Below are positions 18,741 to 20,246 of a stretch of DNA of 33,768 nt, piece after piece (the first letter of the stretch is position 1; each line of letters begins with the position of its first letter). Below the pieces are notes generated by a model. The model made no database searches and was not told where the DNA came from. It was given only the letters and a program-made list of their open reading frames with translations. The translations under genes and the position numbers were made by a program. Origin of the DNA: a virus; the UHGV virus genome UHGV-0181805. One strand, given 5' to 3'.

Positions 18741-18766
18741 AATAAAAAGCCACACATATGCGTGGC
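18741..18766 (-). terminator. Intrinsic terminator immediately downstream of the protease gene
   Basis: Near-perfect 18-bp palindrome GCCACaCATATGcGTGGC (18749..18766); on minus strand followed by TTTTTATTGCC. Confidence 0.6.
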
Positions 18767-18799
18767 CATATCATGTATAAAATCTTATACAACGAATGT

Positions 18800-19540
18800 T
18801 TATTTCGTAGGGAAAGATGTGATCACATCAACGATGGGCTGGATTGAAAATCCAATACCAATTCCGGAGTTAGCATTCAGCGACATCATGTCCGAAACAA
18901 TCTGTAGCGATCTACCAAACATGTCCGCCATTTGCCCGAAATTAACACCCATGATCTCAACACTTCCATGCAGACTTGCTGAAGAAAGATATTGTCGCAG
19001 TTGGGCTATTTCTTGGCTGAAAGCATCAGCCTGATCGCCCATTATATATCTACGCTGGGTGACGATACCTACTAACTCTCCCGAATCTCGATCAATAATA
19101 GGTCCTCCTGAGTTCCCCCCATTAACCATTCCATCAAGCGTAAATCGGCCATGCTCCATCGGTGCTGAAATAATTGCCTCACTTGTTAGTAACAGAGGTA
19201 TCCCATGCGGGTATCCTGCAAAAATTACTTTTCTGCCCCTGGATGGAGCAAACCCAGCAGATGGTTGAAGGACTGTTCTTCCGCCAGGAAGGGGGGATTG
19301 CAATTGCATGATAGCAAAGTCGTTACTACCATCAACATGCAAAATTTTAGCGTCGATACTCTCATTTGCTTCAGTTTGAAGAATGACGTCATTGATTTGA
19401 CACTCGGTTTGTAAGTCACAACAGGTGGCCACAACATGCAAGTTAGTTACAACTAGGTTTTCTCGCATGAAACTGAACCCGCTACCACGAGACTTACCTG
19501 CAATGACCTGAAATGTTGCGTTGGCTAAGTTTTGATGCAT
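18800..19540 (-). CDS. Trypsin-like (S1 / HtrA-type Trypsin_2) serine protease, cytoplasmic, no PDZ domain
   Basis: 246 aa; catalytic-triad motifs TNLHVV (His), NDFAIMQL (Asp), GNSGGP (Ser) in canonical order; no signal peptide; about 90-aa C-terminal extension. Confidence 0.8.
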   Translation of the reverse strand: MHQNLANATFQVIAGKSRGSGFSFMRENLVVTNLHVVATCCDLQTECQINDVILQTEANESIDAKILHVDGSNDFAIMQLQSPLPGGRTVLQPSAGFAPSRGRKVIFAGYPHGIPLLLTSEAIISAPMEHGRFTLDGMVNGGNSGGPIIDRDSGELVGIVTQRRYIMGDQADAFSQEIAQLRQYLSSASLHGSVEIMGVNFGQMADMFGRSLQIVSDMMSLNANSGIGIGFSIQPIVDVITSFPTK

Positions 19541-19652
19541 TGAAATCCTCCGATTCTGGTTAGTGGAATTTCATAATGAACTCATTTCCCAGAATAATTG
19601 ATATATCACATCAATTCACGCCCGGAATATTCAATACACCAATTGGCCCGTA

Positions 19653-19832
19653 TCATTTTTGAGCTGTCTGTAACTTGAGATCAAGCGTGTATGATTCACC
19701 TTCAATGTTGCTTTTAACAACTACCAGCTCTAGCACATCGCCTTCCTTAGGTATTTCATTTTCCACAAACCAGTTCTTAGCTTCTGAGATGGAGTTAACA
19801 ACCGAGATAAAACCACGGTCTTCTTTTTTCAT
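19653..19832 (-). CDS. Hypothetical 59-aa protein upstream of the protease (not in supplied ORF track)
   Basis: Self-translated: [63 protein letters not shown] about 10 nt upstream of ATG; same strand as protease, about 110 bp gap. Confidence 0.3.
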
Positions 19833-20246
19833 GATGAAAAAACCTCGCTTTATTGTTTATGCTTCACTCAGGCCGCGACTTCAAAGCCCGGTATTCATTC
19901 TGCTGGCAGTGCGCCTGCACCGATTTGTTATGCGACAGTACGTCTTTCTTCGTGTCAACGACGGATGAAAAGTGGTCCACTTAATCTCCACCAACGGCCC
20001 AATATTGATCCACCATTTTACTCAGGATTAGCCTCTGCAATAACCGATGTCTTTCCATCAGTCCGCCACCACAAAGAATCTTTTTTGCCATAAGGCAGGA
20101 GGTTCATCTTTCAGTGGCTGCCAGTGTTATTTCCCCACTTACTGGCTTGGGTTGTTTCGTGGTACTGCCGTTAACTGGTGGCCCAGAATAAATTCCGGTT
20201 TCATTATCAAGCCCACCCGTAGATGGGCTTTGTAATGCCTACATGG

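Follow-up and report, generated by a model that had tools for sequence, protein, structure and literature searches.

A PDZ-less HtrA/DegS-type protease gene in a mobile cargo cassette of temperate enterobacterial phages

Layout and distribution of the cassette

The virus genome UHGV-0181805 (33,768 nt; "the window" denotes this whole stretch of analysed DNA) carries, within positions 18741-20246, a cassette in which a gene for a small acidic protein is followed by a gene for a trypsin-like serine protease and by an intrinsic terminator. All coordinates are those of the window, and every gene of the region lies on the minus strand (Table 1). The protease, the 59-amino-acid (aa) open reading frame (ORF) and the terminator reported in a preliminary description of this DNA were all found where that description had placed them. 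Both genes have a ribosome-binding site, GAGG 10 nt 5' of the ATG of the small ORF and GGAGGA 5 nt 5' of the ATG of the protease.

Table 1. Features of the cassette region and of the DNA adjoining it, with the evidence for each.
Feature	Position	Strand	Evidence
Intrinsic terminator	18740..18767	-	Terminator scan and RNA fold
Gene for 246-aa PDZ-less HtrA/DegS-type serine protease	18800..19540	-	Pfam Trypsin_2, fold model
Conserved 112-bp spacer between the two genes	19541..19652	-	Alignment of cassettes
Gene for 59-aa acidic protein	19653..19832	-	Homologous clusters, codon-position pattern
Remaining 31 bp between spanin stub and small ORF	19833-19863	-	Sequence reading
3' stub of Rz1-type o-spanin gene (last ~33 codons)	19864..19980	-	Protein identity to intact gene
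5' stub of ST64T/phage L orf118-like gene (first 21 codons)	19981..20091	-	Protein identity to phage L orf118
Intergenic segment common to P22-like phages, normally 3' of the lysis genes	20092..20246	-	Phage-record matches
Tad2-like gene (Thoeris anti-defence 2 / DUF2829), upstream of the cassette	20247-20810, probable true start ATG 20717	-	PF11195, phrog_872

The gene pair, with a spacing of 112/113 bp, was found in three prophage architectures. The P22-like carriers were the window, Escherichia coli B7A, whose copy of the cassette is 98.9% identical, and CFSAN061770; the HK97-like (HNH/Terminase_4) carrier was found in Leclercia and the lambda-like (Nu1/GpA) carrier in Citrobacter. At every site the cassette lay 3' of the spanin genes and 5' of the small terminase gene, and the upstream neighbour varied, being a Tad2-like gene in the window, Rha in B7A, and neither in CFSAN061770, Leclercia and Citrobacter. 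The position between the lysis cassette and the terminase genes given in the preliminary description was therefore right as to the junction, which is always the same, but the contact is not direct: in the window the Tad2-like gene intervenes upstream, and a DUF2560 gene and a 63-aa gene lie downstream before the terminase genes. The same description had called the cassette unexpected at this site, and this did not hold. In P22-like phages variable cargo is usually carried at the lysis/packaging junction, where sister phages were seen to have Rha, orf118/orf129/dec or nothing, and a cassette there is not anomalous.

The cassette was present in 29 of 5,426 complete E. coli genomes, each time as a single chromosomal copy. 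A tblastn search of 50,697 deposited phage genome records returned no relative above 33% identity, and plasmids gave distant matches only. In IMG/VR, 33 viral contigs carried a protease of at least 44% identity. Guanine-plus-cytosine (GC) content was 0.40-0.47 in the cassette compared to 0.48-0.58 in its flanks. Patchy presence at a module boundary in collinear genomes, a terminator of its own and atypical base composition are among the features by which Hendrix and Juhala recognized morons, and the cassette shows these three; for a further one, a promoter of its own that would allow expression from the repressed prophage, a consensus scan gave no sense match. Its earlier description as moron-like cargo was upheld by the E. 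coli counts, the constant junction, the lower GC content and the terminator. The cassette is a moron: a piece of cargo of temperate enterobacterial phages, horizontally mobile, rare and uncharacterised. It consists of a protease core with three enterobacterial additions: the small protein, the spacer and the terminator. Searches of the full-text literature for the protease family, and for the RefSeq accessions of the proteins from B7A and CFSAN061770, returned nothing.

The protease and its relatives

The protease matched Pfam Trypsin_2 over residues 19-159 (E 3e-20) and also Pfam Trypsin. No PDZ family matched it in the Pfam scan, and the chain terminates 20 residues past the last protease strand. 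The catalytic triad of His35 (TNLHVV), Asp74 (NDFAIM) and Ser144 (GNSGGP) was invariant in alignments of 20 and of 66 relatives; so, for the most part, were two terminal motifs, MHQxLAxxTF at the N-terminus and NANSGIGIG at the C-terminus. An AlphaFold2 model built from the 66-sequence alignment had a mean predicted local distance difference test score (pLDDT) of 87. In Foldseek comparison with the PDB the best match to this model was DegS-deltaPDZ, followed by other HtrA protease domains (E ~1e-12, template-modelling score ~0.55-0.6), and a profile search of PDB sequences returned HtrA-family proteases only (residues 16-167, E 4e-14).

The model differs from HtrA in one place. A predicted two-helix hairpin (residues 168-222, with helices at 168-190 and 201-222) occupies the position of HtrA loop L2 and separates the GIVT strand (156-161) from the final strand GIGIGF (226-232), whereas in HtrA these strands are joined by the short loop L2. 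The most variable parts of the protease were residues 41-70 and the helical insertion at 161-220. As modelled, the hairpin that replaces L2 is specific to the family and comparatively variable.

The presence of a signal peptide was judged from hydropathy and from the modelled N-terminus. Kyte-Doolittle maxima were 0.80 in the first 40 aa (15-residue window) and 1.24 over the whole protease (19-residue window). The N-terminal helix is conserved and is structured within the fold (pLDDT 96). Such low hydropathy leaves no signal-peptide core and no transmembrane helix, and the protease should therefore be cytoplasmic. The earlier account of a protease with intact His/Asp/Ser motifs and with neither PDZ domain nor signal peptide is thus supported by the Pfam scan, the 66-sequence alignment and the hydropathy profile, and the predicted product should be a cytoplasmic, PDZ-less enzyme that is catalytically intact as far as its sequence can tell.

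Among the features of the HtrA/DegP family (MEROPS S1C), a chymotrypsin-fold domain with a His-Asp-Ser triad was found, and a PDZ domain and export to the envelope were not. The likeness to HtrA, DegS and DegP includes the chymotrypsin fold, GNSGGP and other motifs and the terminal GIGF strand. In contrast to these proteins, the window protease lacks a PDZ domain, signal peptide and membrane anchor and is hence predicted to be cytoplasmic; it has a ~55-residue two-helix hairpin in the model in place of loop L2 and a family-specific N-terminal MHQxLA; and its gene is found on mobile elements, whereas HtrA genes are housekeeping genes of envelope stress.

These properties bear on a role in lysogenic conversion, in which the cassette would bring the host a benefit unrelated to phages, for example in stress proteolysis or virulence. 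Morons at such sites often encode host-fitness factors, lambda bor and lom among them, and the carriers include the enterotoxigenic E. coli strain B7A and other clinical isolates. However, a protein with no secretion signal would not be a secreted virulence protease, and the distribution is sparse, spread over many taxa and tied to mobile elements rather than to pathotype. We consider this explanation improbable.

To place the protease family outside enterobacterial phages, 1.84 billion cluster representatives were scanned with HMMER. There were 58 clusters (50% identity) at E <= 1e-30, nearly all of them standalone proteins of 235-255 aa, and a second tier of relatives of ~260 aa aligned over the full length. 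Members are annotated merely as "S1 family peptidase". Some members, including marine ones (P0108, P0114 and P0146, from Photobacterium, Agarivorans and one further cluster), have at their C-terminus an SEC-C zinc-binding motif (PF02810), through which SecA binds SecB and the ribosome; its occurrence in this family may hint at where the protease acts.

All non-phage relatives examined were solitary genes without the small ORF. In Geopsychrobacter electrodiphilus (ARWE01000001; locus L088 1-12732) the homologue P0120 is one unit in a same-strand array of short genes with 16 attC-like repeats of the form TAAC...AATCAAGCGGATGGAA...GCCGCTTATC...GTTA, an array that looks like a sedentary chromosomal integron by its sequence. 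Another solitary copy lies on an island carrying a serine recombinase. In a Bacteroides metagenome-assembled genome (L006 939-5970) the gene is directly downstream of a type I restriction-modification (R-M) HsdR and HsdM/S pair, in Limibacterium (L008 7021-9150) it is directly upstream of a PifA-like KAP NTPase (PADLOC PifA, E 7e-69), and at L012 it has a PDC-S62-like neighbour. Matches to MADS, PsyrT and PDC-S22/S62 were seen among 148 ORFs flanking 14 non-phage loci. These arrangements suggest that the protease is an autonomous core that can stand as a single-gene unit. Unrelated prophages and defence islands had been named as settings in which the gene pair might recur; the pair does occur in three prophage architectures, but at the type I R-M and PifA sites, as in the integron, the protease is present without the small ORF.

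The protease was also compared with known defence systems. In a PADLOC v2.0 scan it matched RT-Protease_XI (E 2e-15) and, more weakly, Avs1b, LmuA and PDC-M35A. The RT-Protease_XI match was confined to profile positions 345-503 of 506, and the retron type XI reverse transcriptase (RT) domain was absent from the 246-aa protein, with no RT ORF nearby. The three weaker matches were likewise limited to the protease portion of their profiles. Membership in any of these four families was rejected, as ordinary PDZ-containing multi-protease proteins match the models better; the PADLOC matches are generic for Trypsin_2, because such proteases score higher on the RT-Protease_XI model (E 1e-23 to 1e-47). 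No PADLOC v2.0 defence family was matched over its full length, the protease giving domain-level matches only and the small ORF none, in agreement with the preliminary description, which could place the pair in no described defence family.

Trypsin-like domains recur as effector or activator modules in defence, in retron II-A2/XI, UG9, Avs1 and trypsin-MBL (PMC7736814, PMC9226505, bioRxiv 10.1101/2025.09.03.673762). The modules of retron type XI, Avs1, Lamassu LmuA-protease and trypsin-MBL share with the window protease the domain type, the cytoplasmic location and a mobile or defence context, whereas the window protease has no RT, STAND ATPase, SMC or MBL partner. To our knowledge, the trypsin-like modules known from defence come with a sensor or nuclease, either as a fusion or as a separate partner. 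Lit of prophage e14 is a zinc metalloprotease that aborts infection by cleaving EF-Tu and is not in the late operon. It shares with the window protease the concept of a single prophage-encoded cytoplasmic protease, but no relation in sequence or fold.

A further parallel is with lambdoid morons and BstA/aba (PMC8585504), which are likewise optional inserts at a module junction with a 3' terminator and atypical GC content. BstA/aba also offers a parallel for a possible two-part logic, a defence protein with an element that protects the carrier phage (PMC8585504). The cassette pairs its protease with a small protein and a conserved spacer instead of an anti-BstA DNA element, and no promoter of the cassette was identified. 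BstA was absent from the matches in the PADLOC scan.

Small ORF, spacer and surrounding DNA

Homologues of the small ORF fell into 25 clusters, and those named by organism were all from Enterobacterales. Sixteen positions were invariant in their alignment, and mean identity at the three codon positions was 0.85/0.88/0.66, a pattern indicating that the protein is under purifying selection. To judge from its homologues, the small ORF is a genuine conserved gene. The protein is acidic (net charge -3). In its AlphaFold2 model (pLDDT 83) the N-terminus is disordered, and the secondary structure comprises one short helix and a long beta-hairpin (residues 34-56). The protein had no match in Pfam, PHROG, PADLOC or NCBIfam, and its fold had no PDB match below E 0.6. 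Hidden Markov model and structure searches together thus gave the protease a Trypsin_2 domain with an HtrA fold, and the small protein neither a family nor a fold. An AbrB/MazE-like antitoxin fold was considered for the small protein and rejected, the model being a single long beta-hairpin with no PDB match.

The link between the two genes proved to be one-sided. The protease was also present in 21 of the 22 viral contigs that have the small ORF. The exception (L161 1501-1665; IMG/VR UViG_3300014648_000010) has a 76%-identical small ORF whose 3' neighbour is an unrelated small gene in place of spacer and protease. Recombination at the 3' end of the small ORF can therefore split the cassette into its two halves. 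Conversely, the small ORF stood at the fixed distance in 24 of the 33 viral contigs with the protease. L102 has a divergent 76-aa homologue and a different spacer, and in L095 the N-terminus of the homologue is frameshifted. The small ORF was missing from six prophage loci (L096, L107, L115-117 and the more distant L119-121 group). At L096 (3689-3913) a different 74-aa ORF (MSIRAKFHCHIIQKSEDG...), with no NCBIfam match, lies upstream of the protease where the small ORF would be. Divergence of the two proteins was weakly coupled (Mantel r 0.32, p 0.013), and mosaic loci were found, with small ORF/protease identities of 90%/72% at one and 64%/93% at another. Co-conservation of the pair therefore holds for contigs that have the small ORF, but not for any non-phage or for several prophage versions of the protease. 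The comparisons suggest that the small ORF is an add-on of enterobacterial prophages, not an obligate partner of the protease.

The spacer was the best-conserved DNA in the cassette. Its length of 112/113 bp was constant in 24 loci, and its mean pairwise nucleotide identity was 0.81 among 17 cassettes whose protease amino-acid sequences differ by up to 48%, whereas the genes on either side reach 0.66 and 0.44 at their third codon positions. The spacer contains two palindromes. The first reads AATTGAT-N7-ATCAATT in the window and AATTGATG-N5-CATCAATT in the consensus; the second has the consensus GAATTCAT-T-ATGAATT and is imperfect in the window (GAGTTCAT-T-ATGAAAT). TGAAT/GATGCAT words recur within it. 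No sense promoter was conserved in the spacer among the 17 cassettes.

A structured RNA in the leader or spacer was rejected as a well-supported element. Rfam had no match in the window except two tRNAs, the RNAalifold consensus of the spacer was weak (-6.8 kcal/mol, 2 covarying pairs) and single-sequence folding was unexceptional (z -0.07 and -1.1). A conserved upstream ORF in the spacer was rejected as well, because it is broken after 4 codons in the window. The spacer is plausibly a cis-regulatory DNA element, possibly a set of operators or a non-canonical promoter, and it may also be a recombination joint.

On the opposite strand, a sigma-70-like site (TTCATA-17-AATAAT, 19570-19598, plus strand) lies inside the spacer and was found in about half of the cassettes. 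Some 490 bp further along the plus strand there is a terminator-like hairpin (20081-20102), which is an annotated terminator in phage L. The site and the hairpin could delimit an antisense transcript across the small ORF.

The arrangement of the two genes raised the question of a toxin-antitoxin-like addiction module, with the protease as toxin and the small beta-hairpin protein as a labile antitoxin that would block the active site. The order of small gene before enzyme, the presence of the protease in nearly all small-ORF contigs, the modest covariation just given and spacer palindromes that could serve as operators are all consistent with this. Obligate tight pairing, which marks type II toxin-antitoxin systems, was nevertheless not found: the protease is solitary at all non-phage and six prophage loci, as a toxin that needs its antitoxin should not be. 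Moreover, the genes do not overlap and are 112 bp apart, the palindromes lie between them rather than upstream of the first, the small protein has no recognisable DNA-binding fold, and the mosaic loci combine partners of unlike divergence. An addiction module is, in our estimate, a poor candidate.

The leader upstream of the small ORF (19833..20246) had been described as about 415 bp of non-coding DNA. It contains no intact gene, but much of it is composed of stubs of an orf118-like gene and an o-spanin gene. Positions 20020-20242 matched 175 P22-like phage records at 90-99% identity, the phage L counterpart being the stretch between Rz and orf118 together with the start of orf118. The segment 20092..20246 marks the recombination boundary on the left of the cargo site. 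The product of 19981-20091 shares 20 of 21 residues (95%) with the N-terminus of phage L orf118, after which the frame departs from homology. The product of 19864-19980 is 66% identical to the C-terminus of a complete lipoprotein of 65 aa encoded in Citrobacter (L086:5467-5664); this o-spanin gene, with an MLTVSC lipobox, immediately precedes the cassette in lambda-like prophages of that genus. The P22-like and lambda-like contexts become homologous at the DNA level inside the spanin stub, and the cassette therefore apparently reached the P22-like lineage from a lambda-like donor. Transfer appears to have been by illegitimate or short-homology recombination that carried the o-spanin stub along.

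At the other end of the cassette, the terminator hairpin GGCCACGC-ATAT-GTGTGGCT is followed by a T-run, with its stem at 18767..18748, 33 nt 3' of the protease stop. The strength ascribed to it earlier was confirmed: its predicted folding energy of -18.9 kcal/mol (z -3.3) was equalled by 0 of 200 shuffled sequences. All versions of the cassette have a hairpin ending in GTGGC with a T-run at this position, the remaining sequence being divergent. No sense sigma-70-type promoter was predicted in 19833-20246 or in the spacer, and none was conserved in the 17 cassettes, a consensus scan being weak evidence on this point; the scan of leader and spacer gave weak antisense matches only. A perfect TTGACA at ~19955 was considered as a promoter and rejected, having a poor -10 (TCGCAT) and not being conserved in other contexts. 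With no predicted promoter and a leader made of gene stubs, the claim that the cassette is self-contained is half shown: it stands for the terminator and not for the start of transcription.

The Tad2-like gene upstream of the cassette matched PF11195 over residues 108-187 (E 1e-26) and phrog_872 from residue 28 (E 2e-69). DNA near-identical to it is present in phage Kapi1, and its homologues in phages Huey and Louie are annotated "anti-CRISPR protein". Since B7A and CFSAN061770 lack it, it does not belong to the cassette. A hairpin resembling a terminator (9 pairs and a T-run) was seen at 20745-20765 on the minus strand, in the gap between Rz, which ends at 20798, and the likely first codon of this gene, and the Tad2-like gene may therefore be a separate cargo unit too. 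At higher coordinates on the minus strand, tRNA genes for Thr(TGT) and Asn(GTT) occupy 22211-22286 and 22292-22366, between the genes for a Q-like antiterminator and holin; phage L has a tRNA pair in the equivalent position.

With such a neighbour, the protease might serve the phage in anti-defence, by degrading an immune protein of the host. The junction would then hold counter-defence cargo, as the Tad2-like gene immediately upstream and the anti-CRISPR annotation of its homologues would suggest. However, this adjacency is not conserved in the other carriers, a late-operon position is late for counter-defence, and the solitary copies beside R-M and PifA genes and in the integron fit a function on the side of the host better. 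It seems quite unlikely that anti-defence is the role of the protease.

Possible roles of the cassette

As a tentative preference, we read the protease as a possible effector in conflict between genetic elements, acting in phage exclusion or abortive infection; the preliminary description had put forward a role of this kind, which is a reasonable candidate. This reading is suggested by single-gene mobility, occasional defence neighbours, variable surface regions and the precedent of protease effectors. The protease would be held latent by its own helical insertion, by the small protein or by both, until a cue from an infecting phage switched it on; the activated enzyme would then cleave a host or phage protein, and the infection would fail. 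Modulation of the protease in prophages would fall to the small protein and the spacer palindromes, as inhibitor, self-immunity factor or expression control, and would let the carrier phage finish its own late programme.

This reading can be made more specific, at the cost of becoming doubtful. On its own, the PDZ-less, cytoplasmic ~245-aa protease with its helical-hairpin insertion would make up a new system of abortive infection or exclusion, spread by integron cassettes, islands and prophage morons, and the enterobacterial prophage versions would have acquired a dedicated beta-hairpin inhibitor and a palindromic region that separates expression of the protease in the lysogen from late expression of the inhibitor.

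Several observations weigh against a role as conflict effector. A defence function needs expression in the lysogen, yet neither the DNA 5' of the small ORF nor the spacer had a predicted sense promoter. Only 44 bp separate the o-spanin stop from the small ORF in the native lambda-like context, as in an ordinary late-operon gene. The small protein is missing from many versions and covaries weakly with the protease, and the PADLOC matches are those of any Trypsin_2 domain. The adjacency to defence genes comes from a handful of loci, without a background comparison, and other relatives lie between nadD and bio (biotin) genes or near lexA and cox genes.

Part of the same evidence suggests the main rival explanation, a late-operon accessory of the carrier phage. 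Transcribed with the late operon and active in the dying cell, the protease might break down a protein of the host or of a competitor, adjust lysis or release, or process a phage protein, with the small protein as co-factor or timer. The post-spanin, same-strand position is invariant in three phage architectures, and the short distance to the o-spanin stop in the lambda-like context, the lack of a predicted sense promoter and the good ribosome-binding sites on both genes all fit expression with the late genes. Q-type antitermination reads through terminators in lambdoid late transcription and would pass the terminator of the cassette. Against this, close relatives are solitary in chromosomes, in an integron and on islands with no surrounding phage. 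The cassette is also dispensable, missing as it is from the 50,697 phage records and from most P22-like prophages; sister phages have unrelated morons at the cargo site, and in several prophages the protease occurs without the small ORF. We regard a late accessory role as somewhat unlikely.

Should the protease prove to be a defence effector, the anti-phage repertoire would gain a minimal serine-protease system of a single gene, and the P22-like phages of E. coli and Salmonella would offer a tractable case of a prophage that spares its own lytic cycle by means of a small protein and a spacer. If its role instead belongs to the late programme, the cassette would represent an unusual function of a cytoplasmic protease linked to lysis or packaging.

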